Below are positions 2,559 through 38,972 of a stretch of DNA of 42,537 bases, in pieces; the first letter of the stretch is position 1; the number at the start of each line of letters is the position of its first letter. Location of the stretch: UHGV virus genome UHGV-0420230; one strand, written 5' to 3'. The notes under the pieces were generated by a model. That model was given only the letters and a program-made list of their open reading frames with translations, ran no database searches and was not told the origin of the DNA. The position numbers and the translations under genes are program-made. Origin of the DNA: a virus.

Positions 2559-3799
2559 TGTTCTTTTCGGGATTATTTCAACGAAAAAGTGACGCACCGG
2601 TGACCACGCCAGCAGAGCTGGTGGATGCTATCGGGCTGTCATACGACACCTATACCGGAAAGCAGATCAGCAGCCAGAGGGCCATGCGACTGACGGCGGT
2701 TTTTTCCTGCGTCAGGGTGCTGGCGGAGTCGGTCGGGATGTTGCCCTGCAACCTGTATCACCTGAACGGCAGCCTGAAGCAGAGAGCCACTGGCGAACGT
2801 CTGCATAAGCTGATCTCCACGCATCCCAATGGCTATATGACGCCGCAGGAGTTCTGGGAGCTGGTGGTCACCTGTCTGTGCCTGCGGGGAAACTTTTACG
2901 CCTACAAAGTGAAAGCATTTGGCGAAGTGGCTGAACTGCTGCCCGTCGATCCCGGCTGTGTGGTACCGAAGCTTAACAGTAGCTGGGAGCCGGTCTATCA
3001 GGTCACATTCCCGGATGGCTCCACGGATGTACTGAGCCAGGAGGATATCTGGCATGTGCGCACGCTGACGCTGGACGGACTGGTGGGGCTGAATCCCGTC
3101 GCCTATGCCCGCGAGGCAATATCGCTGGCGGCAGCGACCGAAGAGCACGGGGCCAGACTGTTCAGCAATGGCGCGGTGACGTCGGGTGTGTTGCGTACAG
3201 AGCAGACGCTGTCAGATCAGGCTTATGAGCGCCTGAAGAAAGATTTTGAGGAGCGTCACACCGGGCTTGGCAATGCTCACCGCCCGATGATCCTTGAGAT
3301 GGGGCTGGACTGGAAGTCGATGGCGCTGAACGCCGAGGACAGCCAGTTCCTGGAAACCCGCAAGTTTCAGCTTGAAGAAATCTGTCGTCTGTTCCGTGTG
3401 CCATTGCACATGGTGCAGAACACCGATCGCGCCACCTTCAACAATATCGAAGAGCTGGGGCTGGGATTTATCAACTATTCACTGGTGCCGTATCTGACCC
3501 GCATTGAGCAGCGGATCAACACCGGACTGGTACGAAAAAGTAAGCAGGGCGTTTATTACGCCAAATTTAACGCCGGGGCGTTACTGCGCGGGGATATGAA
3601 GTCCCGTTTTGAAGCCTACGCCACCGGGATTAACTGGGGAATTTACTCTCCCAATGACTGCCGCGACCTGGAAGATATGAATCCGCGTCCCGGTGGGGAT
3701 GTCTATCTCACACCGATGAACATGACCACGAAACCCTCCGATGGCAGTAAAGCCGGTAAGCAGAAGGATAACGCCAATGCAGACGAAACAACGTCTTGA
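2558..3799 (+). CDS. portal protein (HK97 family)
   Basis: 413 aa in the canonical position after the large terminase; GTG start with GGAGG upstream; portal-like sequence. Confidence 0.8.
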   Translation: MFFSGLFQRKSDAPVTTPAELVDAIGLSYDTYTGKQISSQRAMRLTAVFSCVRVLAESVGMLPCNLYHLNGSLKQRATGERLHKLISTHPNGYMTPQEFWELVVTCLCLRGNFYAYKVKAFGEVAELLPVDPGCVVPKLNSSWEPVYQVTFPDGSTDVLSQEDIWHVRTLTLDGLVGLNPVAYAREAISLAAATEEHGARLFSNGAVTSGVLRTEQTLSDQAYERLKKDFEERHTGLGNAHRPMILEMGLDWKSMALNAEDSQFLETRKFQLEEICRLFRVPLHMVQNTDRATFNNIEELGLGFINYSLVPYLTRIEQRINTGLVRKSKQGVYYAKFNAGALLRGDMKSRFEAYATGINWGIYSPNDCRDLEDMNPRPGGDVYLTPMNMTTKPSDGSKAGKQKDNANADETTS

Positions 3800-4427
3800 T
3801 GTACCGCTGAGTCTGAAATCTGTCAGTGACTCCGGTGAGTTTGAAGGGTATGGCTCCGTCTTTGGTGTAAAGGACAGCCACGATGATGTGGTGATGTCCG
3901 GGGCATTTGCTGCTTCCCTGCGGGCGTGGAGTGACAGAAAAGCGTTACCTGCGCTGCTCTGGCAGCACCGCATGGATGAGCCCATCGGAGTTTACACCGA
4001 AATGAAGGAAGACGATGTCGGGCTTTACGTCAGGGGGCGGTTGCTCATTGATGATGATCCCCTGGCAAAACGCGCACATGCACACATGAAGGCCGGTTCG
4101 TTAACCGGCCTTTCTATTGGGTACGTCCTGAAAGACTGGGAATACGACCGGACGAAAGAAGCCTTTTTGCTGAAAGAAATCGACCTCTGGGAAGTCAGTC
4201 TGGTGACGTTTCCGTCTAACGACGAGGCGCGGATCAGCGACGTCAAGAACGCGCTGGCCCGCGGGGAAATCCCTGAACAGAAAAAAATCGAAAGAGTCCT
4301 GCGTGATGTCGGACTCTCCCGTACCCAGGCCAAAGCATTCATGGCCGGGGGCTATGGCGCACTGTCCCTGCGCGACGCTGAGGATGTGGGCTCTGCACTG
4401 AATGCACTGAAAAATCTGAACTTCTAA
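3777..4427 (+). CDS. prohead protease (HK97 family)
   Basis: Follows portal and precedes capsid; AAGGA RBS before ATG 3777 (the track start 3741 overlaps portal more deeply). Confidence 0.75.
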   Translation: MQTKQRLDVPLSLKSVSDSGEFEGYGSVFGVKDSHDDVVMSGAFAASLRAWSDRKALPALLWQHRMDEPIGVYTEMKEDDVGLYVRGRLLIDDDPLAKRAHAHMKAGSLTGLSIGYVLKDWEYDRTKEAFLLKEIDLWEVSLVTFPSNDEARISDVKNALARGEIPEQKKIERVLRDVGLSRTQAKAFMAGGYGALSLRDAEDVGSALNALKNLNF

Positions 4428-7676: not shown

Positions 7677-7847
7677 ATGTTTGTGAAACCTGTTAAAGGG
7701 CGGTCAGTGCCTGACCCTGCCCGCGGTGACCTTTTGCCCGCCGAAGGGCGAAATGTTGACGAGAACAACTACTGGCTGCGCCGTGAAGCAGCGGGTGATA
7801 TCCGGCGCGTGAATAAAAAGGTGAACACCGATGACGATAATCTTTAA
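7677..7847 (+). CDS. small protein, DUF2635-like (Mu-type tail region)
   Basis: 56-aa ORF not in the supplied track (MFVKPVKGRSVPDPARGDLLPAEGRNVDENNYWLRREAAGDIRRV), overlaps the sheath start by 17 nt; resembles small proteins found before sheath genes in Mu-like phages (from memory). Confidence 0.4.
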   Translation: MFVKPVKGRSVPDPARGDLLPAEGRNVDENNYWLRREAAGDIRRVNKKVNTDDDNL

Positions 7848-9327
7848 CACCATTCCGTCGAATACGCTGGTTCCGCTGTTTTATGCGGAAATGGATAACT
7901 CGGCGGCGAATACTGCACAGGACAGCGGGGCATCGTTGCTGATTGGTCACGCCAATAACGGTGCAGAGATTGTTGCCAACAGTCTGGTGCTGATGCCGTC
8001 GGCAGACTATGCACGCCAGATTTGTGGTGCGGGAAGTCAGCTGGCGCGTATGGTCGAGGCTTATCGCCAGACCGACCCGTTTGGCGAGCTGTATGTGATT
8101 GCCGTTCCGGAAGCCACAGGCGCGGCGGCAACGGTTACGCTGACGGTGACCGGAGCAGCAACCGAAACCGGCACGGTGAATGTGTATGTGGGACGTACCC
8201 GCGTGCAGGCACCGGTGACCAACGGCGATAACGTCACGACGATTGCCAGCAGTATCAAAGATGCCATCAATGCCGTTCCGGCCCTGCCGTTTACGGCCTC
8301 ATCTTCGGCAGGCGTGGTCACACTGACCGCGCGTCATAAGGGGCTTTGCGGGAATGAAATTCCTGTCAGCCTCAATTACTACGGCTTTGGTGGGGGCGAA
8401 GTGCTGCCAGCGGGTGTACAGATTGCCGTGGCGACGGGGACCGCCGGAACGGGCGCTCCGGTTCTCACCGGTGCGGTGGCTGCAATGGCGGATGAGCCGT
8501 TTGATTATATCGGTCTGCCGTTCAACGACACGGCCTCCGTTAACACGCTGGTGACCGAGATGAACGATACCAGCGGTCGCTGGAGCTATGCGCGTCAGCT
8601 GTATGGTCATGTGTATACGGCAAAGATCGGCACGCTGTCAGAACTGGTGACCGCAGGTGACCAGTTTAACCAGCAGCACATCACCCTGGCGGGGTACGAA
8701 AAAGAGACCCAGACGCCTGCCGACGAGCTGGCGGCAAGCCGTACCGCCCGCGCAGCGGTGTTTATCCGCAACGATCCGGCACGTCCCACGCAGACCGGTG
8801 AGCTGGTGGGTATGCTGCCTGCGCCGAAGGGGAAACGGTTCACGATGACCGAGCAGCAGACCCTGCTGTCTCATGGCGTGGCAACGGCGTATGTCGAAAG
8901 CGGGGTGCTGCGCATTCAACGTGATGTCACCACGTACAGGAAAAATGCTTACGGGGTTGCGGATAACAGCTACCTCGACAGCGAGACGCTGCATACCAGT
9001 GCGTATGTACTGCGCAAACTGAAATCCGTCATTACCAGTAAGTACGGGCGTCACAAGCTTGCCTGTGACGGTACCCGCTTTGGTCCCGGTCAGGCGATTG
9101 TCACCCCGGCGGTGATCAAAGGGGAACTGCTGGCAACCTACCGTCAGCTCGAGCGTGCGGGGATCGTGGAAAACTACGAACTGTTCAAGCAGTACCTGGT
9201 TGTGGAGCGTGATGCCAGCGATCCGAACCGCCTGAACACGCTGTTCCCGCCTGACTATGTTAACCAGTTGCGTGTCTTTGCCGTGGTTAACCAGTTCCGT
9301 CTTCAGTATTCAGAGGAGTCTGCATAA
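7831..9327 (+). CDS. contractile tail sheath protein
   Basis: 498 aa, sheath-like, followed directly by a tube protein. Confidence 0.85.
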   Translation: MTIIFNTIPSNTLVPLFYAEMDNSAANTAQDSGASLLIGHANNGAEIVANSLVLMPSADYARQICGAGSQLARMVEAYRQTDPFGELYVIAVPEATGAAATVTLTVTGAATETGTVNVYVGRTRVQAPVTNGDNVTTIASSIKDAINAVPALPFTASSSAGVVTLTARHKGLCGNEIPVSLNYYGFGGGEVLPAGVQIAVATGTAGTGAPVLTGAVAAMADEPFDYIGLPFNDTASVNTLVTEMNDTSGRWSYARQLYGHVYTAKIGTLSELVTAGDQFNQQHITLAGYEKETQTPADELAASRTARAAVFIRNDPARPTQTGELVGMLPAPKGKRFTMTEQQTLLSHGVATAYVESGVLRIQRDVTTYRKNAYGVADNSYLDSETLHTSAYVLRKLKSVITSKYGRHKLACDGTRFGPGQAIVTPAVIKGELLATYRQLERAGIVENYELFKQYLVVERDASDPNRLNTLFPPDYVNQLRVFAVVNQFRLQYSEESA

Positions 9328-9683
9328 TGGCCCGTATCGGGGGAACCTGTTATTTCAAAATTGACGGTCAGCAGCTATCGCTGACCGGCGGCATTGAGGT
9401 GCCCATGAACAGGACGGTCAATGATGACATCATCGGCCTGGACGGTTCAGTGGACCGCAAGGAAACTCACCGTGCGCCTTATGTCAAAGGGACCTTCAAG
9501 GTGCCGAAGAATTTTCCGGTGAGCAAAATCACCTCGTCTGATGAGATGACCATCACTGCCGAGCTGGCGAACGGTCAGGTCTATGTACTGTCGTCTGCCT
9601 GGCTGCACGGCGAAGCGAACCATAATGCCGAAGAAGGCACGGTTGATCTTGAGTTCCACGGTGAAGAAGGGGATTACCAGTGA
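9327..9683 (+). CDS. tail tube protein
   Basis: 118 aa immediately after the sheath; ATG overlaps the sheath stop. Confidence 0.8.
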   Translation: MARIGGTCYFKIDGQQLSLTGGIEVPMNRTVNDDIIGLDGSVDRKETHRAPYVKGTFKVPKNFPVSKITSSDEMTITAELANGQVYVLSSAWLHGEANHNAEEGTVDLEFHGEEGDYQ

Positions 9684-10003
9684 TTGAGCTTGTACTTAAA
9701 AAACCGATCATCGCCCACAAAGAAACACTGCATGTGCTGGAAATACGTGAGCCTACGTATGACGAGATTGAGGCGCTGGGGTTCCCTTTCTCTGTTTCGC
9801 CTGATGGTGGTATGAAAATGGACAGTCAGGTAGCGCTGAAATATATCCCGCTTCTGGCCGGGATCCCGCGCTCGTCTGCAGCGCAGATGACGAAGCTGGA
9901 TATTTTCAAGGCAGGCATGATTGTAATGCGTTTTTTTACCGGCTTGGAGACGGAAGAGACCTCCGGAAGCGATTCTACAATGTCGCGTGGTTCTGGAAAT
10001 TAA
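9680..10003 (+). CDS. tail assembly chaperone
   Basis: 107 aa between tube and tape measure; GTG start. Confidence 0.65.
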   Translation: MIELVLKKPIIAHKETLHVLEIREPTYDEIEALGFPFSVSPDGGMKMDSQVALKYIPLLAGIPRSSAAQMTKLDIFKAGMIVMRFFTGLETEETSGSDSTMSRGSGN

Positions 10004-10095
10004 ACCCCCTTGAACTTCGCCGGACGGCTATTTCCCACTTTGCTGATCTGGAGGCAGAGGCCGTCCGTATAAATGAGGAGATGAAGCATGGCTGA
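9680..10095 (+). CDS. predicted -1 frameshift-extended chaperone (G-T-like fusion product)
   Basis: T7 run 9931-9937 forms a T_TTT_TTT heptamer in the chaperone zero frame; the -1 frame is open from 9805 to TGA 10093-10095, overlapping the tape measure start. Confidence 0.45.
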
Positions 10096-11989
10096 TAATT
10101 TTCAGCTGAAAGCCATCATCACCGCCGTTGACAGGCTATCCGGCCCGCTTAAAGGTATGCAGCGTCAGCTTAAGGGGTTTCAGAAAGAAGTCTCCAGCCT
10201 TGCTCTGGGCGCTGCCGGGGCGGGTACTGCAATAATGGGGGCACTGGCACTCCCTGTAAAATCAGCCATCACCCTTGAATCGAAGATGGCTGATGTCCGC
10301 AAAGTGGTGGACGGTCTGGATACGCCGGATGCGTTTAAGGCCATGACGGAGCAGGTACGCGCTTTGTCTACTGAGCTTCCCATGTCTGCAGACGGGATCG
10401 CGGAAATTGTGGCGGCTGGCGGTCAGGCCGGGATTGCACGTGATGAACTGATGCAGTTTGCCACTGATGCGGTGAAGATGGGCGTGGCCTTTGATACCAC
10501 GGCTGAAGAGTCCGGGCAGATGATGGCCCAGTGGCGTACTGCGTTTAATATGACGCAGGATGAAGTGGCCGGGCTGGCTGACAAAATCAACTACCTTGGT
10601 AATACCGGCCCGGCGAATGCGAAGAAAATCTCCGATATTGTTACGCGTATTGGTCCTTTAGGTGGTGTTGCAGGTGTGGCTTCCGGCGAAATCGCGGCAA
10701 TGGGGGCAACCATTGCCGGGATGGGCGTGGAGTCAGAAATTGCCGCCACAGGGATCAAGAACTTCATGCTTTCCCTGACCGCGGGAAATTCCGCGACAAA
10801 ATCGCAGAAACAGGCATTACGTTTTCTGCGGATCAATCCGAAGAAATTAGCTGCTGATATGCAGAAAGATGCCCGGGGAACCATGCTGTCTGTACTGGAT
10901 GCGATGGCTAAAGTGCCTAAAGAAAAACAGGCAGCTGTGCTGAATGCCCTGTTCGGGAAAGAGTCTCTGGGCGCGATAGCTCCTCTGCTGACTAACCTTG
11001 ATTTGTTGCGTACCAACTTCAGGCGGGTTGCGGATTCCCAGCAGTATGGCAGTTCGATGCAGAAGGAATATGCTTCGAGGGCAGCGACGACGGAAAACCA
11101 GCTTTTACTTCTGCAAAATCAACTTGATGCCATTTCTTCCACTCTGGGGGAAACGTTTCTTCCTGAGGTTAATGATGGTCTTGAAGCGGTAAAACCGCTC
11201 CTTGAGGAAGTGAGAACGTTTGTCCGTGAAAACCCGGAGCTCGTTAAGACCATTGCTAAAATCGGTCTGGCTTTACTGACAGTGGGGGCCGCTGCAGGCT
11301 CTTTGTCCAGAATCATGAAAGTTCTCGGCGGTGTGATGAATATGACGCCTGCTAAGGGGCTGATTGCTCTTCTGGTTGGTGGCGCTTACCTCATTATTGA
11401 TAATTGGGAAACCGTAGGTCCTGTCATAAAAAAAGTCTGGCACGTGGTGGATGAAACGGCGCAGATGATGGGGGGATGGGAAACTGTTCTGAAAGCGATT
11501 GCCCTGTTTATGGCAACCAAATGGGTTGCTGACGTTACCAAATCCATTACCGCAGTGACCAGAGAGATGCGTACGCTGGGGAAGGTATCGGCAGAAACGG
11601 GATTGATGGGGAAAGGCCGCGGCTTTATCGGGAAGGCCGGGGTATATGGTTTTCTGGGAACCCTGATGTATGAGCCGGTTAAAGATACTCTGGAAAGTGT
11701 TGTTCCTGAAGATACGGTTAACTGGCTGGATAATAAAGGGCTGTTTCTGGCTTCAGACTGGACGCCTTTTTTTGATCGTAAAGAGTACGAGCAGTATCAG
11801 GCCAGCCTGAGTCAGTACAAACCCAATGTTCCGCTGTTGAATCCATCTTCTTCCATGACACAGCACAGCGAGCTGAAAGTCACGTTCGAGAATGCTCCGC
11901 CAGGTATGAAGATAATTGATGTACCGGGCAAAGCCGATCCCCTGATGAAAATCACGCACGATGTGGGGTATTCTCCATTCAGACGATAA
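10088..11989 (+). CDS. tail tape measure protein
   Basis: 633 aa, alpha-helical Ala/Gly-rich protein after the chaperone; GAGGAG RBS. Confidence 0.85.
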   Translation: MADNFQLKAIITAVDRLSGPLKGMQRQLKGFQKEVSSLALGAAGAGTAIMGALALPVKSAITLESKMADVRKVVDGLDTPDAFKAMTEQVRALSTELPMSADGIAEIVAAGGQAGIARDELMQFATDAVKMGVAFDTTAEESGQMMAQWRTAFNMTQDEVAGLADKINYLGNTGPANAKKISDIVTRIGPLGGVAGVASGEIAAMGATIAGMGVESEIAATGIKNFMLSLTAGNSATKSQKQALRFLRINPKKLAADMQKDARGTMLSVLDAMAKVPKEKQAAVLNALFGKESLGAIAPLLTNLDLLRTNFRRVADSQQYGSSMQKEYASRAATTENQLLLLQNQLDAISSTLGETFLPEVNDGLEAVKPLLEEVRTFVRENPELVKTIAKIGLALLTVGAAAGSLSRIMKVLGGVMNMTPAKGLIALLVGGAYLIIDNWETVGPVIKKVWHVVDETAQMMGGWETVLKAIALFMATKWVADVTKSITAVTREMRTLGKVSAETGLMGKGRGFIGKAGVYGFLGTLMYEPVKDTLESVVPEDTVNWLDNKGLFLASDWTPFFDRKEYEQYQASLSQYKPNVPLLNPSSSMTQHSELKVTFENAPPGMKIIDVPGKADPLMKITHDVGYSPFRR

Positions 11990-12053
11990 TATAACTACTT
12001 TAATCAAGTAGGGTTATTGAGTGGTAAAGTTTGTGCTGAATGTAGGAGAGAAT

Positions 12054-12542
12054 ATGAAGAAAATGTTTATATTGTTGTTGGCTGTAGGACTGCCATTAAA
12101 CTCCTTTGCGAAGCCAGTAACGGAAAAGCAGCTTGCTACATACTTTATAGATAACGTTAAAACTTCAGCGGATAAGAATATAGATCTAGATGTAGAGGGA
12201 ATAAATAGACTGTCTGTAATATGCCCAGCAAAGTCGGCAAGTGGAACTCTTTTAATAAAAAAAGCATCCTACGAGTTTAATAAAAGCATTGGTGCTTTTG
12301 ATTTTGAAAATAACTCACAATCTGCACCATTGACTTTTATTGTACCAATTAGTGAGGATGAAAATAACTTTGACTCGGAAATTATTGGTTTCTCTTTTGC
12401 ATTTAAAATGCCAAGAGGGCAATTCTTTGTTGATGTTACGAAAACAGGGAAGGTAAAGGCTGGCGTAAATATTAGTGGTGAAAGCGGAATTACTTATTCA
12501 TCATGTAGAATAGATACTCATAATGTTGATTATGATCGTTAA
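12054..12542 (+). CDS. secreted hypothetical protein (moron with Sec-type signal peptide)
   Basis: AGGAG 12044-12048 then ATG 12054; N-terminus MKKMFILLLAVGLPLNSFA-KP is a typical signal peptide; strongly AT-rich versus flanking tail genes; own terminator. Confidence 0.7.
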   Translation: MKKMFILLLAVGLPLNSFAKPVTEKQLATYFIDNVKTSADKNIDLDVEGINRLSVICPAKSASGTLLIKKASYEFNKSIGAFDFENNSQSAPLTFIVPISEDENNFDSEIIGFSFAFKMPRGQFFVDVTKTGKVKAGVNISGESGITYSSCRIDTHNVDYDR

Positions 12543-12556
12543 TTTTATTACCTAAT

Positions 12557-12586
12557 AAAAAACCGCGTTTACACGCGGTTTTTATT
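12557..12586 (+). terminator. rho-independent terminator
   Basis: Hairpin AACCGCG-TTTACA-CGCGGTT at 12561-12580 followed by a T-run. Confidence 0.7.
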
Positions 12587-12598
12587 TGAGGTGACGCC

Positions 12599-13972
12599 AT
12601 GGATTTTTCTCATATTTCTTCGTACCTATCCTCTGATTCTCGAAGTGGCTGGCGTGAAAAGCTACTTGAAGCATCATTTCGAGGTGTGCCGTTTAAGGTT
12701 GAAGAAGAAAGTGCGGGAACCGGTCGCCGTGTGGAAACACATGAATACCCGAACCGCGACAAGCCCTATACCGAAGATCTGGGAAAAGTCACTTTCCGCC
12801 CGTCCATCACAGCTTATGTGGTGGGAGATGACTGCTTTGACCAGCGCGATCGCCTGATTGAAGCGCTGAATAAACCCGGTCCCGGCACGCTTGTCCACCC
12901 GACATATGGTGAGCTGAAAGTCTGTGTTGACGGGGAAGTTCGGGTCAGCACATCGAAAAGTGAAGGGCGTATTGTCCGCTTTGACCTGAAGTTTGTCGAA
13001 GCAGGAGAACTCTCTTACCCCACATCAGGTGCGGCGACGGCGCAGACGCTGATGTCATCCTGTTCTGCACTGGATGACTGCATCAGTGACAGCTTCAGCG
13101 GTTTCAGTATCGATGGTGTGGCGGATTTCGTGCAGAACGACGTTATCGGTAATGCCAGCATAATGCTGGGGTATGTTTCTGATGCGATGAAAGTGGTGGA
13201 TTCTGCCGTATCGGATGCCGCCAGGCTGTTGCAGGGGGATATCTCGGTACTTCTGCAGCCGCCATCGTCAGGCAAAAATTTCGTTGAGCAGGTGCAGAAA
13301 ATGTGGCGTACCGGGAAACGCCTTTATGGTAACGCCAGCGACCTGGTCACCATGATCAAAACGCTTTCCGGTGTCAGCCTCGGCAGCGATCTGCAACCGC
13401 GCGGCGTCTGGAAAACGGACAGTAAAACCACCGCCACGGCGACGCAGCAGCGTAACGTGGTTGCCAGCACCCTTCGTACGACCGCAATCAGCGAAGCGGC
13501 GTATGCCGTCACCCGATTGCCTGCGCCAACAACTTCCGCGGTGATGCAGAATTCCGCAGTGGGGCAGGCAACAACACCTGCGCAGAGCACTGGCTGGCCT
13601 TCCGTCACGCATCCGGCACTGAACAATGCACCGGCGGTGAAAAACACGGTTGACCTGCCGACGTGGGAAGAACTGACTGACATTCGCGACACACTGAATA
13701 CGGCAATTGATAAGGAGTTGTCCCGTACAACCAGTGATGCGCTGTTTCTGGCGCTGCGCCGGGTGAAAGCAGATCTGAATGCGGATATCAACACGCGCCT
13801 TGAACAGTCTGCACGGATCATTCAGCGCACGCCGGATGAGGTTTTACCCGCGCTGGTGCTGGCGGCGACCTGGTTTGATAACGCGGCGCGTGACGCGGAC
13901 ATTATCCGGCGTAATGCCATTACGCATCCCGGCTTTGTGCCGGTGATCCCTCTGAAGGTGCCAGTGCAATGA
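12599..13972 (+). CDS. DNA circulation protein (Mu gp43-like)
   Basis: 457 aa in the conserved position after the tape measure in Mu-type tails. Confidence 0.75.
   Translation: MDFSHISSYLSSDSRSGWREKLLEASFRGVPFKVEEESAGTGRRVETHEYPNRDKPYTEDLGKVTFRPSITAYVVGDDCFDQRDRLIEALNKPGPGTLVHPTYGELKVCVDGEVRVSTSKSEGRIVRFDLKFVEAGELSYPTSGAATAQTLMSSCSALDDCISDSFSGFSIDGVADFVQNDVIGNASIMLGYVSDAMKVVDSAVSDAARLLQGDISVLLQPPSSGKNFVEQVQKMWRTGKRLYGNASDLVTMIKTLSGVSLGSDLQPRGVWKTDSKTTATATQQRNVVASTLRTTAISEAAYAVTRLPAPTTSAVMQNSAVGQATTPAQSTGWPSVTHPALNNAPAVKNTVDLPTWEELTDIRDTLNTAIDKELSRTTSDALFLALRRVKADLNADINTRLEQSARIIQRTPDEVLPALVLAATWFDNAARDADIIRRNAITHPGFVPVIPLKVPVQ
13173..13226. repeat. internal copy of the 54-bp sequence also found at 1-54
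   Basis: Exact identity to window 1-54. Confidence 0.9.
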
Positions 13973-17644: not shown

Positions 17645-18382
17645 ATGCATCGTATAGACACGAAAACCGCGCAGAAGGATAAGTTCGGCGCGGGTAAGAA
17701 CGGTTTTACCCGTGGTAACCCCCAGACCGGCACGCCTGCCACCGATCTGGATGATGACTACTTTGACATGTTGCAGGAGGAGCTTTGCAGCGTTGTGGAG
17801 GCGTCCGGTGCCAGCCTGGATAAGGGGCGGCACGACCAGCTACTTACCGCGCTTCGCGCGCTGCTGTTAAGCCGCAAGAATCCGTTTGGCGATATCAAAT
17901 CGGATGGCACGGTGAAAACGGCTCTCGAAAACCTTGGATTAACCAACGCGATAATTGGTGATACCTGTAAAGAAGCAGGGTTCTACTTAGGAAGTGAACT
18001 TGCCCCTTATCTTATGCATGAGGACACTCACACAGCCATCCGCCTGGTAACGTTGGATAGCGTCCGTCGAGTAACAACCACTACTTACACTATTAATTAT
18101 TACGCGAATGGCTTAATTCAGATTTTAGGTATGACCCCAACAGTAAGCTCTTTTACTCCCCAGACCATGACATTCCCAGTGGCGTTCCCAAATGCTTGTG
18201 TTCGGTTTGCATTGCACAACCAAGAAAGTGGCGTCCCATCCTACAACATGGCGATGTATTCTAATTTAAGCAGAACGGGCGTGAAGATATGGGGAGTGGC
18301 GAACATTCTTGGCAACGGTGGAAGCCCGTCGCTGGGCGCGCTACCGAACGCTGAAATCTCTTATGAAGCATGGGGTTACTGA
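17645..18382 (+). CDS. tail fibre protein (constant N-terminus fused to variable C-terminus, current orientation)
   Basis: 245 aa; a recombination crossover site lies inside the gene at codon ~97. Confidence 0.8.
   Translation: MHRIDTKTAQKDKFGAGKNGFTRGNPQTGTPATDLDDDYFDMLQEELCSVVEASGASLDKGRHDQLLTALRALLLSRKNPFGDIKSDGTVKTALENLGLTNAIIGDTCKEAGFYLGSELAPYLMHEDTHTAIRLVTLDSVRRVTTTTYTINYYANGLIQILGMTPTVSSFTPQTMTFPVAFPNACVRFALHNQESGVPSYNMAMYSNLSRTGVKIWGVANILGNGGSPSLGALPNAEISYEAWGY
17922..17947. other. invertase crossover site (gix/pix-like), left
   Basis: CTCTCGAAAACC-TT-GGATTAACCAAC; left half matches the gix-type half-site (memory) at 8/12 and matches the right-hand site in inverted orientation. Confidence 0.6.
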
Positions 18383-18383
18383 T

Positions 18384-18821
18384 ATGACATTTTTCTACAG
18401 TGCAGCACATAATATTTTTGTTTCAGATATTAACAAAGAGAGCTATGAGGATGCTGGATCGTGGCCAGCAGATGCAAAAGAAGTTTCAGATGAATTATTT
18501 TATCAATATTCGCAAAATCCACCGAAAGGCAAAATTCGCTCCCATGCAGATGGCCTGCCCATCTGGGAAGATGCCCCGCCTATGACTGAAGAAGAACTTA
18601 TTCTGAAAAATAAGAATGAAAAACAAATTCGTATCGATGAAGCCAATAATTATATGCACGGTAAGCAATGGCCAGGTAAAGCGGCTATTGGTCGTCTGAA
18701 AGGTGAGGAACTGGCGCAATATAATTTGTGGCTGGATTATCTGGACGCACTGGAGCTGGTCGATACTTCCGGTGCGCCAGATATTGAATGGCCTACGCCT
18801 CCGGCAGTTCAGGCCAGATGA
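18384..18821 (+). CDS. tail fibre assembly protein (orientation A)
   Basis: Starts 1 nt after the tail fibre stop; C-terminus ...DTSGAPDIEWPTPPA matches the conserved C-terminal motif shared with the convergent partner. Confidence 0.7.
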   Translation: MTFFYSAAHNIFVSDINKESYEDAGSWPADAKEVSDELFYQYSQNPPKGKIRSHADGLPIWEDAPPMTEEELILKNKNEKQIRIDEANNYMHGKQWPGKAAIGRLKGEELAQYNLWLDYLDALELVDTSGAPDIEWPTPPAVQAR

Positions 18822-19386
18822 CATCCGGCGCGGTGCTGGTATCTGTTACCGTCACCGCGTCAATGTAATCCAGCACGGCGTTAAGTCGGGTTGTTTCTGC
18901 CTGAGTCAGCTTCCGTCCGGCCTGTAATTTCAGTTGAATCAGACTGATGGAAGCCATTGCAGCATCAATCAGCGACTGGCGCTGTGCTTCTGCCGCGTCT
19001 AGTGCGGCACTATGCTGTGCCTCAGTATCTGTCACCCATTTCTCACCATCCCATTTATCGTATGGCGTTAACGGTGAAAGCGTGACATAACCGTCTTTGA
19101 TGGCACCGATATAATCCACTGTAACAGCTGCGCCATTTTCGATTGAGTAAACAGTCTCATTGCGGTGGTCTTCTTCATGGCTCCATCCCTTACCCGTAAA
19201 TACTGCCACTTTCCCCGGAATGTATTCGCCCGGGTCAATACCAGTGGAACAGGCGGGCATACTTACGCCAGTATTAATATATTCATCAGACCAGCCCGTA
19301 TATTCAGACGTTACTGCATCATAATAAAAACAACGCATATCACCCGGCACTGTAGCCAGCCCATTTTCATCAAAAACAGGTTTCAT
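18793..19386 (-). CDS. tail fibre assembly protein (orientation B)
   Basis: 197 aa; C-terminus ...DTSTAPDVIWPELPEA; convergent with and overlapping the orientation-A gene. Confidence 0.7.
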   Translation of the reverse strand: MKPVFDENGLATVPGDMRCFYYDAVTSEYTGWSDEYINTGVSMPACSTGIDPGEYIPGKVAVFTGKGWSHEEDHRNETVYSIENGAAVTVDYIGAIKDGYVTLSPLTPYDKWDGEKWVTDTEAQHSAALDAAEAQRQSLIDAAMASISLIQLKLQAGRKLTQAETTRLNAVLDYIDAVTVTDTSTAPDVIWPELPEA

Positions 19387-19853
19387 TATGCAGCCCTCAC
19401 AATATAATTAAAGGCGATGTTACGTGGACGGTTTTCATTAGCTGTTGGCACGACACGAGAGGCGTCGAATCCAAGGTCATCGGTTTTGTCTATAGTAGTT
19501 GTGCTATTCGGCATTCTCGCTGATCGTGTTCCTGCATCGTAAAAAGCCCCTCTGATTGCATCAAAAGACATACCGATCCCGCCATCTGCGAATCCCTCAA
19601 TATTTCTTATTGCATCCCCCTGTGAAGATAATAATTGTCGCCCGGCATCCACTCCACGTCCGTCATCCCAGCCACGAATAAATTCACCGCGTAAATCAGG
19701 CAATTTATTTGTCGGATAAACCTTTGCCAGTTCCGGGTATTCTTCAGCAGAAAAAGCCGCACCATTGCATTTTAGCCAGCCTGTTGGCGGAGTGGCGGAA
19801 GGCCACGGGACAGGCACACCAACGGGTAATGCCGAACCTTCTCCCAAACCAAC
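19386..19853 (-). CDS. alternative tail fibre C-terminal segment (expressed only after inversion)
   Basis: Tail-collar-like sequence (LKCNGAAFSAEEYPELAKVYPTNKLPDLRGEFIRGWDDGRGVDAGRQ); reading frame runs into the right crossover site; NVGL aligns to NLGL at the left site. Confidence 0.6.
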   Translation of the reverse strand, partial: VGLGEGSALPVGVPVPWPSATPPTGWLKCNGAAFSAEEYPELAKVYPTNKLPDLRGEFIRGWDDGRGVDAGRQLLSSQGDAIRNIEGFADGGIGMSFDAIRGAFYDAGTRSARMPNSTTTIDKTDDLGFDASRVVPTANENRPRNIAFNYIVRAA

Positions 19854-19864
19854 GTTTAAGAAAA
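19839..19864. other. invertase crossover site (gix/pix-like), right
   Basis: TTCTCCCAAACC-AA-CGTTTAAGAAAA, an imperfect palindrome with 8/12 matches to a gix-type half on each side; central dinucleotide AA versus TT at the left site, i.e. inverted. Confidence 0.6.
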
Positions 19865-19919
19865 TGCAGAGATTATGGCTAACTGGCATCATCCCCGGTT
19901 TTTACTCATGGGAATGCTC

Positions 19920-20477
19920 ATGCTTATTGGCTATGTCCGCGTATCAACAAATGACCAGAATACGGAATTGCAGCGTAATGCGCTGGAGTGTGCAGGATGT
20001 GAGCTGATTTTTGAAGATAAGATCAGCGGCACTAAGTCCGACCGACCGGGACCGAAAAAACTGCTCAGAACATTATCAGCAGGTGACACTCTGGTAGTCT
20101 GGAAACTGGACCGACTGGGGCGCAGTATGCGGCATCTTGTCGTGCTGGTGGAGGAGTTGCGCGAACGTGGCGTTAATTTTCGCAGCCTGACGGATGCTAT
20201 TGATACCAGCACACCAATGGGGCGCTTTTTCTTTCATGTGATGGGTGCCCTGGCTGAAATGGAGCGAGAGCTTATTGTCGAACGTACTAGGGCGGGCTTT
20301 GCCGCAGCACGACAAGAAGGGAGGAATGGTGGGCGAAAGCCAAAGCTGACAGTAGAACAATGGGAGCAGGCTGGCAGGTTGATTGAATCGGGAATATATC
20401 AGCAGCAAGTCGCACTGATTTATGATCTGGGTATTTCAACGGTGTATAAAAAATTCCCTGTAGCAAGTAAACCATAA
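19920..20477 (+). CDS. serine DNA invertase (Gin/Pin/Hin family)
   Basis: MLIGYVRVSTNDQNTELQRNAL... and C-terminal HTH closely resemble Gin/Pin; start taken at the MLIGY methionine rather than the track start 19875. Confidence 0.85.
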   Translation: MLIGYVRVSTNDQNTELQRNALECAGCELIFEDKISGTKSDRPGPKKLLRTLSAGDTLVVWKLDRLGRSMRHLVVLVEELRERGVNFRSLTDAIDTSTPMGRFFFHVMGALAEMERELIVERTRAGFAAARQEGRNGGRKPKLTVEQWEQAGRLIESGIYQQQVALIYDLGISTVYKKFPVASKP

Positions 20478-20503: not shown

Positions 20504-21199
20504 TTATGCACTATTTTTAGGTCTTGTAACCCGAGGTGGGAGTTGTTTGGTTATATGTTCAAGTGATTTTTTGCCCAAGATAGTTCTTTGGACAAAACTT
20601 TCTATAGCTTCTAGCATTTGTTCGAACTCACTTTTATTCGGGCTCCAACTGCGATGTGCGGCGGCGTTTCCTGCATCAATTACAGAAGATATAACGCATG
20701 CCTCAGTGTCGCCTATGACTCCATCTTGTTTTAATTTTTCAACTTTTTCACCAAGCGGCAAACCGGGGTGAATTTGTAACAGTTCAGCAGTTCGATCAAA
20801 AATCGTCCGTAAACCGATGGACGAAAGAATGAAATGGTCAGAAGTATATGAAGAATACATTTCATTAAATATTTGAAAGAGCTGACGATCAACTGATTCA
20901 AGCTTGGATAACCATATCGGAGCTTGAAATGTTTCAGCGGCAGGATAGGTAGTGATCATATCTATAGGCGTTTCTACAAATTCACCATCACGATATTCGT
21001 GGGTAGTATGCTCACTGAAGTGTTCGTTGTGGTGATAGAAGACAGTATCACAGCCATTGCATTGGAGTAGGTGATGGTAATGGTACCCATAAACTGGATA
21101 TTGGGAATCCTCCCAGCTAGTGGTTAGCTTCCCATGCACAGTGCAGTTACGTAACCCACCGCATGTAGGGCAAAGAGCCTTGAGTATTTCCTTTTTCAT
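20504..21199 (-). CDS. zinc-ribbon protein with C-terminal DUF4145-like helical domain (candidate defence/accessory gene)
   Basis: 231 aa; N-terminal CPTCGG...C-x16-CNGC; C-terminal ...GNAAAH...EFEQMLEAIESFV resembles the DUF4145 signature (memory); AT-rich; sits where e14 carries mcrA. Confidence 0.65.
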   Translation of the reverse strand: MKKEILKALCPTCGGLRNCTVHGKLTTSWEDSQYPVYGYHYHHLLQCNGCDTVFYHHNEHFSEHTTHEYRDGEFVETPIDMITTYPAAETFQAPIWLSKLESVDRQLFQIFNEMYSSYTSDHFILSSIGLRTIFDRTAELLQIHPGLPLGEKVEKLKQDGVIGDTEACVISSVIDAGNAAAHRSWSPNKSEFEQMLEAIESFVQRTILGKKSLEHITKQLPPRVTRPKNSA

Positions 21200-23401: not shown

Positions 23402-23974
23402 ATGTTTTGCGAAGAAAAAGTAGCTCAAATGGCTGCATACCTACTTCTTAAGCGAGGTGGGCGCATGGCATATCTGAAATTGATGAAGTTGCTCTATCTG
23501 TCTAACCGCCAGTCGATTTTGAAGCATGGCAGGATGATCGGCGAAGATAGCCTTTACTCTATGAAATTTGGACCAGTCATGTCGAATACGCTGAACTTGA
23601 TTCGCGGTAAGGCTGAAGGCATTGGTGACTACTGGTACAACTTGATAGAGACGAACGGGCATAATGTATCGTTGCGTTCAGATCCGAGGGAAATGGATGC
23701 AGACGAGGTCTTTGATGAATTGAGTCGTGCAGATATCCGGATTTTAGATGAAATCTATTCTCGGTATGGGCATATGAACCGATTTGATCTCGCAAATATG
23801 ACGCATTTAGAAAGCGTTTGTCCAGAGTGGCACGATCCTGGCAATTCTCGTAAGCCTATAGACCTGAAAGAAATGCTGATCAGTGAGGGTAAAAGCGAGG
23901 ATGAGGCTAATCGCATAATTGGCAAAATGGAAGAATCTCAGAAACTTAAGGAATTTTCTTTGCAATTATCATGA
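23402..23974 (+). CDS. Panacea (DUF4065)-like domain protein, candidate antitoxin
   Basis: 190 aa; ...YLKLMKLLYLSNRQSILKHGRMIGEDSLYSMKFGPVMSNTLNLI fits the Panacea pattern (LKLQKLLYY...GPV) from memory; GAGG RBS; AT-rich. Confidence 0.6.
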   Translation: MFCEEKVAQMAAYLLLKRGGRMAYLKLMKLLYLSNRQSILKHGRMIGEDSLYSMKFGPVMSNTLNLIRGKAEGIGDYWYNLIETNGHNVSLRSDPREMDADEVFDELSRADIRILDEIYSRYGHMNRFDLANMTHLESVCPEWHDPGNSRKPIDLKEMLISEGKSEDEANRIIGKMEESQKLKEFSLQLS

Positions 23975-24390
23975 CGGATTATCAGCCATACAGGAAAGGA
24001 ACTGTGCTTGCCCCAACTGGGCCATGCAATCATCTTCATGTGATTTGTAATGATCCTGTTTATTACCCCGTTAACGATTGTTATTGTGTTTTAGTTGTTA
24101 ATATTTCTAGTATCAAGGATGGTGTCCCCCACGATCCGTCTTGCGTCTTGAATTCTGGTGATCATCGCTTTATCAAGCATCCAAGTTATGTTGTTTACGC
24201 TGAAGCTATAATTTGGCGAGTGGATAACATGGTTAGAAAGCAGCGATCGGGTGAGATTTCTGTTCATGATGATATGCCAGAAGCTACATTCAATAGAATT
24301 CTGGACGGTTTTGATATCTCTGATGAAGTTACGCCAAAGAACCTTAAATTTAAAAATAAATATTGCGTATCATCTATTGATGATGAGTAA
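23971..24390 (+). CDS. hypothetical protein, candidate toxin/effector partner
   Basis: 139 aa; start overlaps the upstream stop (ATGA at 23971-23974), implying translational coupling; no recognised family. Confidence 0.55.
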   Translation: MTDYQPYRKGTVLAPTGPCNHLHVICNDPVYYPVNDCYCVLVVNISSIKDGVPHDPSCVLNSGDHRFIKHPSYVVYAEAIIWRVDNMVRKQRSGEISVHDDMPEATFNRILDGFDISDEVTPKNLKFKNKYCVSSIDDE

Positions 24391-32497: not shown

Positions 32498-33317
32498 TTC
32501 TGATAATTCTGAGCGTTATATTGTTCTGGCAGCGGCAAAATCCGTTGCCGGGATTGGCGTCCCGGAATTTTCCACAGCGCACAACCGCGCTAAAGCGGTT
32601 TTTTTGTGTGCAATGCACGGCTACATCCAGATTATGGTGGGCCGGGCAGGGGCATCGAAAGATGCGCCGGTATCTGTGGAAGCCGGTTACGCCAACCCTG
32701 TTCGGTTCACCACCAGTCAGATTGGCGTCTGTGGTGGTGATTGTCCAAATCATTCCACAGGGGCTGTCGTGATGACTACTATCCCAACCCTCGCACAACC
32801 TGAAATTACGGTTATCAACGGCCTGGCCGTTACTTCTTCCCTAGCTATTGCCGACTACTTCGCCAAGCGTCATGACGATGTACTGAAAAAGATCCGCACG
32901 CTTGAATGCTCAGCATCATTCACTGCCCGCAATTTTTCGGTGAGTGATTACACTGATTGCACAGGTCGCAAACTTCCTTGCTACCAAATCACACGCGACG
33001 GTTTTGCGTTTCTTGCTATGGGTTTCACGGGTAAACGTGCTGCCCAGTTCAAAGAGGCATACATCAATGCCTTTAACCAGATGGAGAAACAGCTTTCAAA
33101 GCCCTCTGTACCGAGCGACGTTGCACATAACGCCAGCGTTCTCTGTTCCTACATTTCATCAATTCATCAGGTCTGGTTGCAGCAGCTTTATCCCATGCTG
33201 GAAAAAGCTGAATCACCGCTGGCTGTAAGTCTGTATGACCGAATTAACGATGCGGCATTTCTTGCCCGTCTTATTCATTCGTCGCTGAACTCTTCAGAGG
33301 TAAGGGGGCGCAAATGA
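32475..33317 (+). CDS. Rha-family phage regulatory protein
   Basis: ITVINGLAVTSSLAIADYFAKRHDDVLKKIRTL...ITRDGFAFLAMGFTGKRAAQFKEAYINAFNQME resembles the Rha domain. Confidence 0.7.
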   Translation: MSKPVMIDSDNSERYIVLAAAKSVAGIGVPEFSTAHNRAKAVFLCAMHGYIQIMVGRAGASKDAPVSVEAGYANPVRFTTSQIGVCGGDCPNHSTGAVVMTTIPTLAQPEITVINGLAVTSSLAIADYFAKRHDDVLKKIRTLECSASFTARNFSVSDYTDCTGRKLPCYQITRDGFAFLAMGFTGKRAAQFKEAYINAFNQMEKQLSKPSVPSDVAHNASVLCSYISSIHQVWLQQLYPMLEKAESPLAVSLYDRINDAAFLARLIHSSLNSSEVRGRK

Positions 33318-37210: not shown

Positions 37211-38206
37211 GTGACCGTGAGAGCACTACTGACCCCTGAAATAGCCCCGCGTATGGGGATTGTATTGTTCAGACCAGGTTCAGAGCTGATGCCCCTGTTT
37301 ATGCAGGGGCGTGTCCTGCTGGAGCCTGAGCCGGAACGTTATTCATCTTTCGCCAGTGGTGCCGTTCCGGCGGCATCACAACCGCTGGCGGATGATCCTG
37401 CCGTTAGGGCCGTGTTCCGCAATGAGGCAGTGATCCGTCGTGCTGGTGGCGTGGAATGTCTTGAAAGCTGGTTACTTCGTGAAAAAGGCTGCCAGTGGCC
37501 TCATTCCGACTGGCACAGCGAGAACATGACCACAATGCGACACGCGCCGGGCGCGATCCGTCTGTGCTGGCACTGCGATAACCAGCTGCGCGATCAGTTC
37601 ACGGAACGGCTGGAATCAATGGCAACGGATAACTGTGCCCGCTGGGTGTTGTCTGTAGTCCGTCTGGATCTCGGTTTTGATGATAACCATGCCGTGACAA
37701 TGCCGGAACTGTGCTGGTGGCTGATTCGTAATGACCTGGCGGATGCCTTACCGGAAAGTGCAGCCCGTAAGGCACTGAGATTACCGAAGCCTGTTGTGCC
37801 GTCTGTCACCCGGGAAAGTGACCTTGTGCCTTCGGTTCCTGCCACCAGCATCATCCAGGATAAGGCGAAAAAGGTGCTGGCGCTGAAAGTGGATCCGGAG
37901 TCGCCGGAGTCTTTTATGTTACGCCCAAAACGCCGCCGCTGGGTTAATGAAAAGTACACGCGCTGGGTTAAGACACAGCCGTGTGCATGTTGTGGAAAGC
38001 CTGCTGATGATCCCCACCACCTGATAGGCCACGGTCAGGGTGGAATGGGTACAAAAGCGCATGACCTCTTTGTGTTGCCTTTGTGCAGAAAGCATCACGA
38101 CGAGCTGCATGCGGATACCGTGGCATTTGAAGAGAAGTATGGCTCTCAGCTGGAGCTGATATTTCGTTTTATCGATCGTGCGCTGGCAATTGGCGTATTG
38201 GCGTAA
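37211..38206 (+). CDS. DUF968-domain protein (HNH-like C-terminus)
   Basis: C-terminal ...QPCACCGKPADDPHHLIGHGQGGMGTKAHDLFVLPLCRKHHDELH; GTG start. Confidence 0.6.
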   Translation: MTVRALLTPEIAPRMGIVLFRPGSELMPLFMQGRVLLEPEPERYSSFASGAVPAASQPLADDPAVRAVFRNEAVIRRAGGVECLESWLLREKGCQWPHSDWHSENMTTMRHAPGAIRLCWHCDNQLRDQFTERLESMATDNCARWVLSVVRLDLGFDDNHAVTMPELCWWLIRNDLADALPESAARKALRLPKPVVPSVTRESDLVPSVPATSIIQDKAKKVLALKVDPESPESFMLRPKRRRWVNEKYTRWVKTQPCACCGKPADDPHHLIGHGQGGMGTKAHDLFVLPLCRKHHDELHADTVAFEEKYGSQLELIFRFIDRALAIGVLA

Positions 38207-38219
38207 GTGGAGAACGAGC

Positions 38220-38972
38220 ATGAACCTTGAAGCCTTACCAAAATATTACTCCCCAAAATCTCCAAAATTGAGCGATGACGCACCGGCGACAGGCTCAGGT
38301 GGTTTAACGATTACGGATGTGATGGCTGCGCAGGGGATGGTGCAGTCGAAAGCACCGCTTGGGTTTGCCTTATTCCTGGCAAAAGTTGGTGTTCAGGATC
38401 CTCAATTTGCGATTGAAGGTCTGCTCAATTACGCGATGGCACTGGATAACCCGACATTGAACAAATTGAGTGAAGAAACCCGGTTACAGATCATCCCTTA
38501 CCTTGTGAATTTTGCCTTTGCTGATTATTCCAGGTCTGCGGCAAGTAAGGCTCGCTGTGAGCATTGTGCTGGTACTGGATTTCATAATGTATTGCGCGAA
38601 GTGGTGAAACACTCCAGAAGCGGGGAATCTGTTATCAAGGAAGAGTGGGTGAAGGAACTATGTCAGCATTGTCATGGTAAGGGAGAAGTCAGCACAGCGT
38701 GCAGAGGGTGTAAGGGTAAAGGTATTGTCCTGGATGAAAAAAGGACCCGGCTTCATGGCACGCCTGTTTATAAGATTTGTGGGCGTTGCAATGGAAACCG
38801 GTTTAGCCGTTTACCAACCACACTGGCGCGGCATCATGTCCAGAAGCTGGTACCAGACCTGACGGATTATCAGTGGTACAAAGGATATGCAGATGTCATT
38901 GATAAACTGGTTACAAAGTGCTGGCAGGAAGAAGCATATGCAGAGATACAATTGAGAAAGGTGACAAGATAA
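38220..38972 (+). CDS. Q-like late antiterminator
   Basis: Zinc-binding CEHCAGTG...CQHCHGKGE...CRGCKGKG; immediately upstream of a late promoter plus terminator; ATG 38220 preferred over the GTG at 38178. Confidence 0.7.
   Translation: MNLEALPKYYSPKSPKLSDDAPATGSGGLTITDVMAAQGMVQSKAPLGFALFLAKVGVQDPQFAIEGLLNYAMALDNPTLNKLSEETRLQIIPYLVNFAFADYSRSAASKARCEHCAGTGFHNVLREVVKHSRSGESVIKEEWVKELCQHCHGKGEVSTACRGCKGKGIVLDEKRTRLHGTPVYKICGRCNGNRFSRLPTTLARHHVQKLVPDLTDYQWYKGYADVIDKLVTKCWQEEAYAEIQLRKVTR

Follow-up and report, generated by a model that had tools for sequence, protein, structure and literature searches.

The prototype moron is gene 15 of phage HK97, which is situated within the tail operon beside the tape-measure gene, is expressed from the prophage and blocks DNA injection (PMC3594210). 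This study was concerned with UHGV-0420230, a virus genome of 42,537 nucleotides (nt; the whole stretch is referred to as the window), and with a single gene at 12054..12542 on its plus strand, here called the cargo gene, which is placed between the tail tape-measure gene and the DNA-circulation gene. The cargo gene belongs to a well-known kind of element, the phage morons, and is itself uncharacterised; the fuller statement that it is a moron encoding an exported accessory protein is very probably correct. Of the five moron criteria of Juhala and Hendrix, three were found here, namely extra DNA between adjacent genes, deviant composition and a predicted terminator of its own; the criteria also include a promoter of its own and expression from the repressed prophage (summarised in PMC3594210). 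The junction in which the gene lies is clearly a recurrent site of interchangeable single genes for envelope-directed proteins.

The cargo gene resembles HK97 gene 15 in being a small single gene beside the tape measure of a lambdoid temperate phage, with deviant composition, its own predicted terminator, absence from close relatives and a product assigned to the envelope (PMC3594210). HK97 gp15, however, is a tiny inner-membrane protein related to YebO, encoded upstream of the tape measure and having a demonstrated promoter and exclusion phenotype, whereas the window protein is an unrelated, putatively soluble beta-barrel with a predicted cleaved leader, encoded downstream of the tape measure. 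Lom and Bor of phage lambda are likewise AT-rich, exported and encoded among or after the tail genes, and both are expressed from the prophage (PMC3594210). Lom is an outer-membrane barrel of the Ail/OmpX family and Bor is a lipoprotein, and neither family matches the window protein. Several other small envelope proteins exported by Sec stop injection or receptor use by later phages: Spackle (Sp) of T4, Llp of T5 and Cor of phi80 and N15. The genes for Llp and Cor adjoin those for tail or receptor-binding proteins, and Spackle, which is periplasmic, acts against the cell-wall-degrading activity of gp5. Spackle is a helical protein; Llp and Cor are lipoproteins or associated with the outer membrane; both T4 and T5 are virulent phages. 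The window protein was found to resemble none of Spackle, Llp and Cor in sequence or structure, and it has no lipobox. The likeness of the window protein to PliC/MliC and to calycin, avidin and MoaF-like barrels is at the level common to all small barrels; it has an extra N-terminal helix, and no hidden Markov model (HMM) match to them was obtained.

Variable content of the tape-measure/DNA-circulation junction

The tape-measure and DNA-circulation proteins of phage SfIV are 100% and 96% identical, respectively, to those of the window, and the two genes are separated by 24 nt with no cargo gene between them. SfV, SfI and SfII also are without it, and the junctions of these four phages measure 24-45 nt as against 609 nt in the window (11990-12598). 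Since SfIV was isolated as an infectious phage (PMC3851460), the cargo gene is dispensable for a working virion. Among 5,426 complete Escherichia coli genomes, 101 carry the insert and a further 115 with the same tape-measure type have an empty junction of the SfIV type, while this type of DNA-circulation gene is found in 1,094 (about 20%). The gene is common in E. coli of human and animal origin, including sequence type 131 (ST131). An earlier note, made from the sequence alone, had taken the gene to be a moron added to a Mu-type tail module. Comparison of the junction in related phages upholds this: the gene is absent from the four Sf phages, the junction is empty in about half of the E. coli prophages with the same tape-measure type, and homologues are not conserved virion components in all relatives.

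The contents of the slot were compared in 80 IMG/VR loci, chosen for a DNA-circulation protein that shares at least 95% identity with that of the window; the gap to the tape measure could be measured in 75. This sample is biased to close relatives and includes near-duplicates, and its counts show variety, not frequency. The slot was empty in 27 of the 75 loci, with a gap of 15-27 nt, and it was filled by the cargo gene (phrog_5586, with a Sec signal peptide) in 14. Fifteen loci carried phrog_8976, a protein of 164 amino acids (aa) with the Sec leader MRIFVFFISALLSFNLAA cut before EE and a TTTTCA-16-TATAAT site upstream (identified by eye). Another 13 carried phrog_5485, of 176 aa with an N-terminal membrane anchor; the same cargo occurs in E. 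coli CP55_Sichuan, where it has a TTGTAA-16-TAGAAT site and its own terminator. The remaining 6 loci had a gene on the minus strand for a membrane-anchored protein of 148-160 aa with a PF12869 oligonucleotide/oligosaccharide-binding (OB) fold, which matches phrog_8545, annotated 'superinfection exclusion Sie-like', at 1.5e-49. Example loci are L072 (about 3352-3992), L085 and L049 (L049 2885-3415) and, for the minus-strand gene, L095 and L121. All slot cargos in the sample are AT-rich (GC 0.31-0.38), and the tail-slot alleles of phrog_5586 have a GC of 0.34-0.40.

The phrog_8545/PF12869 proteins resemble the window protein in their position at the same junction in sister prophages, in AT-rich genes, in a length of about 150 aa and in being targeted to the envelope. 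They differ in that their sequence and fold are unrelated, they have an N-terminal membrane anchor instead of a cleaved leader, and their genes lie on the opposite strand. Because this minus-strand cargo cannot be read from the late operon, a gene in this slot can form a transcription unit of its own. The earlier note had thought placement inside a structural operon unusual, but it has a precedent in HK97 gene 15 (PMC3594210) and is a repeated event at this junction. A limited literature search found no paper describing the junction as a swap hotspot of small envelope-protein genes, and its description here as a hotspot for the exchange of such genes is mildly new.

The edges of the variable segment lie inside the flanking genes. 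The alignment with SfIV breaks at about 11974, and, with 11400-13200 as the query, matches to other prophages restart at 12668/12674 (query positions 1269/1275). The mosaic edge of the cassette is inside the essential DNA-circulation gene, and each type of cargo travels with its own N-terminus of that protein. A search for direct repeats around the cassette gave nothing beyond chance 11-12-mers and no sign of transposition or site-specific insertion. With no flanking repeats above chance and with boundaries inside the flanking genes, gain and loss of the cassette look like homologous exchange across the conserved flanks and not transposition.

Several single observations were made at these loci. 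The first 23 or so codons of the DNA-circulation gene (12599-12674) are lower in GC and differ from SfIV/SfV-type relatives. In E. coli PEC122 (NZ_CM168021.1, about 4438521-4439906; hit H13/H54) the cassette region is split by IS1B, giving a match in two pieces with a transposase between them. A 49%-identical homologue is intact in a decayed prophage of Shigella flexneri and one E. coli (L006 5350-5412, L007 8480-9270). There the insertion sequence (IS) IS1 cuts the DNA-circulation gene after about 11 codons, and further IS elements and an ipaH-like C-terminal fragment follow.

The cargo gene, its product and its relatives

The sequence features listed in the earlier note, namely an AT-rich open reading frame (ORF), an AGGAG ribosome-binding site (RBS), a Sec-type leader, two cysteines and a predicted terminator, were all found in the places given for them (Table 1). 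The ATG start codon is separated from the RBS by a 5-nt spacer, and the ORF encodes 162 aa. The program that listed the ORFs begins this one at a GTG at 12021; RefSeq and all homologues use the ATG. The GC of the gene is 0.344, against 0.50 in the upstream and 0.56 in the downstream flank, and 12001-12500 is the lowest-GC 500-nt bin of the whole 42.5-kb window. No ORF of 40 aa or more was found on the minus strand under the gene, and an Rfam scan gave no family overlapping it. The gene is real and not a chance ORF: it matches phrog_5586 over its full length, and even homologues of only 25% identity retain the leader, the two cysteines and the GQFFV and AGVN motifs.

Table 1. Features in and around the cargo slot, with positions in the window and the basis of each assignment
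Feature	Position	Strand	Basis
Tail sheath	7831..9327		
Tail tube	9327..9683		
Tail chaperone	9680..10003		
Tail tape-measure gene	10088..11989	+	PF10145 2.2e-42, phrog_28 2.6e-141
Variable (mosaic) segment: last tape-measure codons, cargo gene and about the first 23 DNA-circulation codons	11974..12674		SfIV alignment break, prophage match resumption
AGGAG RBS	12044..12048	+	Direct reading
Predicted signal peptide MKKMFILLLAVGLPLNSFA	12054..12110	+	n/h/c regions, -3/-1 rule, junction in 9 homologues, low AlphaFold confidence (pLDDT) at residues 1-20
Mature 143-aa phrog_5586 protein (modelled N-terminal helix and 8-stranded beta-barrel, Cys57/Cys151)	12111..12542	+	Stop TAA 12540-12542
Predicted intrinsic (rho-independent) terminator AAAAACCGCGT-TTAC-ACGCGGTTTTT then ATTT	12558..12587	+	Inverted repeat, folding energy
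DNA-circulation/baseplate hub gene	12599..13972	+	PF07157 1e-33, phrog_184 5e-144
Late-gene antiterminator Q	38178..38972	+	PF03589 Antiterm 1.3e-53

The N-terminus is predicted to be a Sec-type signal peptide cut by signal peptidase I (SPase I) after Ala19, before K20. A leader of this type was recognised by a basic n-region, an h-region of 7-15 residues, small residues at -3 and -1 and no lipobox Cys at +1. On inspection the window protein shows each of these: MKK, then MFILLLAVGLPL with a hydrophobic core of 12 residues, then NSFA (S-F-A at -3/-1) before K, with no Cys at +1. A cleavage site of the A-x-A/K type recurs in 9 homologues (A at -1; S, A or V at -3) although their leader sequences differ. 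In the structural model, residues 1-20 have low confidence and the fold begins at residue 24. Export to the periplasm, as the earlier note proposed, is consistent with the sequence.

The AlphaFold2 model, built from a 12-sequence family alignment (mean predicted local distance difference test, pLDDT, 86.3; predicted template modelling score, pTM, 0.79), has a disordered leader, a helix at 24-41 and eight beta-strands. Structure prediction, which had been proposed as a check on the gene, gave a confident barrel; the accompanying similarity search gave no close relative, since Foldseek against the PDB and BFVD (viral models) returned nothing at E 0.001 or better and a profile search of PDB sequences returned only matches at E 0.13 or worse. 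The weak structural matches include avidins, fatty-acid-binding proteins (FABP) and bile-acid-binding proteins, hemophilin and the lipocalin-like Tp0751, and the best of them are soluble barrels. The mature part contains two cysteines, C57 (12222-12224) and C151 (12504-12506), which are nearly invariant across the family. Cys57 is at the end of strand 1 and Cys151 is in strand 8, and because strands 1 and 8 are adjacent in a closed 8-stranded barrel, a disulfide that closes the barrel is plausible on the model. A soluble periplasmic protein, and not an outer-membrane barrel of the Lom kind, is suggested by the shortness of the strands and their charged residues, by the helix at the N-terminus, by the cysteines and by a C-terminus that is not aromatic.

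The earlier note had recognised no family for the protein. It belongs, in fact, to a catalogued family, phrog_5586 (function unknown), which it matches end to end (1-161 of 161, E 2.6e-85). Exhaustive searches of 5.8 billion and 1.84 billion proteins gave only a handful of relatives, and a second deep search with a family profile gave no additional ones. Relatives of 40-50% identity (P0007 from Shigella and E. coli, P0011 and P0014) occupy the same slot in more diverged tail modules and have their own terminator hairpins; L043 carries a further allele of this kind, and P0013 is in the same identity range. In the diverged slot loci the protein is 44-50% identical, the tape measure 53-71% and the baseplate proteins 56-82%. 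The phrog_5586 HMM matches of the distant homologues range from 1e-13 to 1e-64. Three relatives of 25-31% identity, P0018, P0020 (from Pantoea) and P0025 (HMM E about 1e-13), lie outside tail operons; on contigs that resemble phage-plasmids, their neighbours are parA, toxin-antitoxin pairs and a CI-like repressor, and a terminator follows them. The family is thus an accessory cargo of temperate elements of Enterobacterales that has long been tied to the slot, and is not a gene of the tail module.

The scan of genome contigs gave E. coli and Shigella loci only, apart from three weak stretches in Firmicutes (its E-values are relative to the candidates only). These three, L009, L010 and L011 from metagenome-assembled genomes of uncultured Bacilli/Firmicutes, matched in tblastn at 25-28% over about 80 aa (residues 22-102), and were judged probably spurious or Ig-like repeat proteins. 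Cadherin/Ig-repeat proteins in the P0021-P0027 range (1e-7 to 5e-4, in many short stretches) were set aside as repeat or compositional matches and not homologues. A tblastn search of plasmids with a distant homologue and a megablast search with a phage-plasmid-like contig gave almost nothing. Literature searches with the phage name, the RefSeq protein accession, 'tRNA_anti-like' together with superinfection exclusion, and SfV-type morons gave nothing on the cargo gene, and a paper on the prophage transcriptome of LF82 includes no SfV-like prophage. Downstream of one tape-measure gene, a HIRAN-domain gene is followed by homologue P0019, and L045 carries a HIRAN-domain gene with a homologue of the window protein. 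Three homologues from metagenome assemblies (P0002, P0003 and P0004) have in-frame deletions of about 18-40 residues that remove the loop and strand segment around residues 75-110; these may be real alleles or assembly artefacts.

The predicted terminator begins sixteen bases past the stop codon. It consists of a perfect 11-nt inverted repeat (12558-12568/12573-12583, 11/11 complementary) with a 4-nt loop and a T-run to 12587, and its folding free energy (dG) is -20.4 kcal/mol (z = -5.0; 0/200 shuffles as stable). A scan for consensus terminators missed this hairpin, probably because the A-run and T-run lengthen the stem. The RBS of the DNA-circulation gene (GAGGTG, 12588-12593) begins one base after the T-run. 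An analogous hairpin and T-run follow all tail-slot allele types and the phage-plasmid homologues. In the 44-50%-identical alleles P0007, P0011 and P0014 the terminators are present with different sequences. Since the window encodes Q, late transcription should pass the internal terminator and reach the baseplate genes, a read-through expected from the biology of lambda. The retention of a terminator after every allele would be mainly sensible if transcripts made independently of Q in the lysogen must stop before the tail genes.

Candidate functions of the putatively exported protein

The favoured explanation is that the cargo gene is a moron, that its product is an exported periplasmic barrel and that superinfection exclusion is its most likely job; this statement as a whole is given a probability of roughly 45%. 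On this reading the gene is an AT-rich cassette that can be exchanged horizontally and brings an RBS and a predicted terminator of its own, in the tape-measure/DNA-circulation hotspot of a temperate myovirus of the SfV/SfIV kind. Its 162-aa product would be exported by Sec and cleaved after Ala19, and in the periplasm would fold to a small soluble barrel of eight beta-strands, with an N-terminal helix as its cap and probably stapled by a Cys57-Cys151 disulfide. During lytic growth, RNA polymerase modified by Q would read through the terminator to the baseplate genes, and in a lysogen the terminator would halt any local Q-independent transcript before the tail genes. The product would then act in the envelope against incoming phages, possibly contractile-tailed relatives, whose adsorption or DNA injection it would block at a step in the periplasm.

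Exclusion is favoured as the function because the slot alternately houses a Sie-like family and two other envelope proteins, because distant homologues lie in the maintenance and immunity regions of phage-plasmids, and because HK97 gene 15 offers a precedent. Taken by itself, this function is a tentative assignment, held with rather less than even confidence. The lysogenic-conversion or superinfection-exclusion role that the earlier note had proposed gains indirect support, from the hotspot context, the Sie-like alternative cargo, the phage-plasmid contexts and a raised ratio of non-synonymous to synonymous differences per site (pN/pS). Compared with the window allele, alleles from the fetched loci have a pS of 0.01-0.04, like the flanks, and a non-synonymous divergence several-fold higher, with a pN/pS of 0.58-1.9 for the cargo gene as against 0.03-0.43 for the tape-measure, DNA-circulation, gpP, tube and gp45 genes. 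A more ambitious form of the idea appears doubtful to us. It holds that soluble exclusion factors of the periplasm form a new class, founded by phrog_5586, in which the disulfide-stapled barrel would intercept tape-measure or hub proteins extruded into the periplasm by a contractile-tailed phage, and that the junction is a dedicated exclusion-gene hotspot, where recombination within the tail genes on either side exchanges no fewer than four unrelated envelope proteins.

Several results weigh against exclusion from the prophage. The 'Sie-like' label of phrog_8545 is a database annotation, for which no experiment was traced in the literature, and the PF12869 cargo is unrelated to the phrog_5586 protein. 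Pfam, NCBIfam and PADLOC gave no match for the protein and its homologues apart from a sub-threshold Pect-lyase hit (E 0.048), and no PADLOC defence model matches. The counts behind the pN/pS values are small (1-4.5 synonymous and 7-9.5 non-synonymous differences), and the raised ratio fits relaxed constraint equally as well as diversifying (arms-race) selection. A consensus promoter scan of the plus strand upstream of the gene found no site of 9/12 or better. The best candidate of a relaxed scan, at 8/12, is ATGAAA-18-TATTCT at 11945-11974, which lies inside the 3' end of the tape-measure gene and is at the level of chance. No upstream motif is shared among the allele types of the phrog_5586 gene, while the other cargos of the slot have good promoter candidates or lie on the opposite strand. 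In the P0014 allele the start codon follows the tape-measure stop after an interval of just 16 nt. Expression of the cargo might thus be restricted to the late operon, and the keeping of the slot by 44-50%-identical homologues in diverged tail modules could mean a role in the lytic cycle tied to the tail genes.

These same observations, namely the lack of a recognisable promoter in the scans, the 16-nt spacing and the long retention of the slot while tape-measure identity fell to 53-71%, together with an orientation shared with the late operon, are the case for a lytic-cycle accessory. Such a protein would be expressed only with the late tail genes and exported to modify the envelope, sparing progeny or related phages wasted injections into infected or lysing cells and debris, or to tune lysis. 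Llp of T5 is thought to prevent such wasted injections. This explanation is nevertheless unlikely, as a terminator is kept after every allele even though Q-modified polymerase would ignore it, family members are found in phage-plasmid maintenance and immunity regions away from late operons, a different slot cargo is encoded on the other strand, and infectious relatives do without the gene. Slightly less unlikely is a prophage-encoded factor of host fitness or virulence that has nothing to do with phage defence. Here the ligand of a periplasmic calycin-like barrel would be small and hydrophobic, or else a molecule from the host or the environment, and the benefit might be, for example, resistance to stress, bile or serum, in the manner of Bor/Lom lysogenic conversion. 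Its moron anatomy would be the same as in the exclusion explanation, and the fold class is common to ligand-binding barrels, with avidins, FABP/bile-acid-binding proteins, hemophilin and Tp0751 among the weak matches. The frequency of the gene in human and animal E. coli, including ST131, and the intact copy kept in the decayed, IS1-truncated S. flexneri prophage beside an ipaH-like remnant also speak for it. Against this, no homologue was found outside temperate phage and phage-plasmid contexts, the tiny and restricted family is atypical of a broadly useful fitness factor, and the alternative cargo at the slot includes the Sie-like family.

Three further readings were rejected. The least improbable of these, and one that is a specific form of exclusion, is a periplasmic inhibitor of peptidoglycan hydrolases of the PliC/MliC kind, directed at lysozyme or at incoming tail lysins. 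A periplasmic 8-stranded barrel with a conserved Cys pair would suit such an inhibitor, but PliC/MliC structures rank only 20th-24th, behind many unrelated barrels, no Pfam MliC/PliC match was obtained for 12 family members at E up to 10, and there are none among the matches of the profile to PDB sequences. An outer-membrane barrel of the Lom/Ail/OmpX kind, a known type of product of tail-region morons, would also have eight strands and a signal peptide. That assignment is very improbable, given that no Pfam match to Ail/Lom or outer-membrane barrel families was found, the strands are only 5-10 residues long and preceded by an 18-residue N-terminal helix, and the C-terminus ends in VDYDR (KPS, SPT or KPE in homologues) without a terminal aromatic beta-signal. 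The two conserved cysteines and the soluble barrels among the best structural matches point the same way. A structural or tail-assembly component of the virion, suggested by a location flanked on both sides by essential tail genes and by an orientation like theirs, is the least probable reading of all and is effectively refuted. Infectious SfIV, SfV, SfI and SfII, whose tail genes are nearly identical, lack the gene, the junction is empty in 115 E. coli genomes, unrelated genes can replace it in the slot, and a Sec leader would take the protein out of the cytoplasm, where tails are assembled.

The cargo site is well defined and easily recognised in a very common type of E. coli/Shigella prophage, and the at least four unrelated small envelope proteins that alternate there with the empty state are a natural set of candidates for phage exclusion at the level of the envelope. 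The phrog_5586 family, which has no known function or close structural relative, is present in clinically important lineages such as ST131. If the protein does block injection of related myoviruses, it would be relevant to competition between prophages and to host range in phage therapy; if it has no measurable effect, the finding would amount to routine annotation.

Phage context and other loci in the window

The window is the complete genome of a temperate, lambdoid, Q-antiterminated phage of the SfV/SfIV type. Its segment 11500-13100 is 100% identical to Escherichia phage vB_EcoM-720R4 (ON470603), in which the cargo gene is annotated 'hypothetical protein' and its left neighbour 'tape measure protein Mup42'. 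The late region begins with the terminase (about 131-2364) and head genes, followed by a Mu-like contractile tail module in which gpP, gp45, gp46 and baseplate J come after the DNA-circulation/hub gene. The window also contains an invertible tail-fibre region, an integrase, a CI-like repressor, replication genes, Q, a methylase and a lysis cassette.

Other loci of the window were noted in passing. At 17645-20477, a serine recombinase (Resolvase and HTH_7, 19875..20477) adjoins tail-collar/tail-fibre-assembly ORFs on the opposite strand (18793..19386 and 19386..19892, minus), which suggests an invertible host-range switch of the Mu G-segment/Cin kind. An AT-rich gene for a DUF4145 protein (20504-21199, minus; GC about 0.40) between the tail-fibre region and the integrase is likely another accessory or defence-type cargo. 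On the plus strand at 23402-24390, a SocA/Panacea-domain protein (PF13274, 2e-19) and an overlapping 139-aa ORF with no family match adjoin the integrase; the pair looks like a toxin-antitoxin system of the PanA type, and PADLOC gave no match for it. The DNA methylase gene (PF01555) at 39579-40631 (plus) has the Q antiterminator on one side and the holin on the other, which is the classic place of post-Q morons. Tandem Rfam matches at 32529-32717 (plus), to the isrK Hfq-binding RNA (78.7 bits) and the C4 antisense RNA (77.8 bits), mark an antisense immunity element of the P1/P7 type in the early region.

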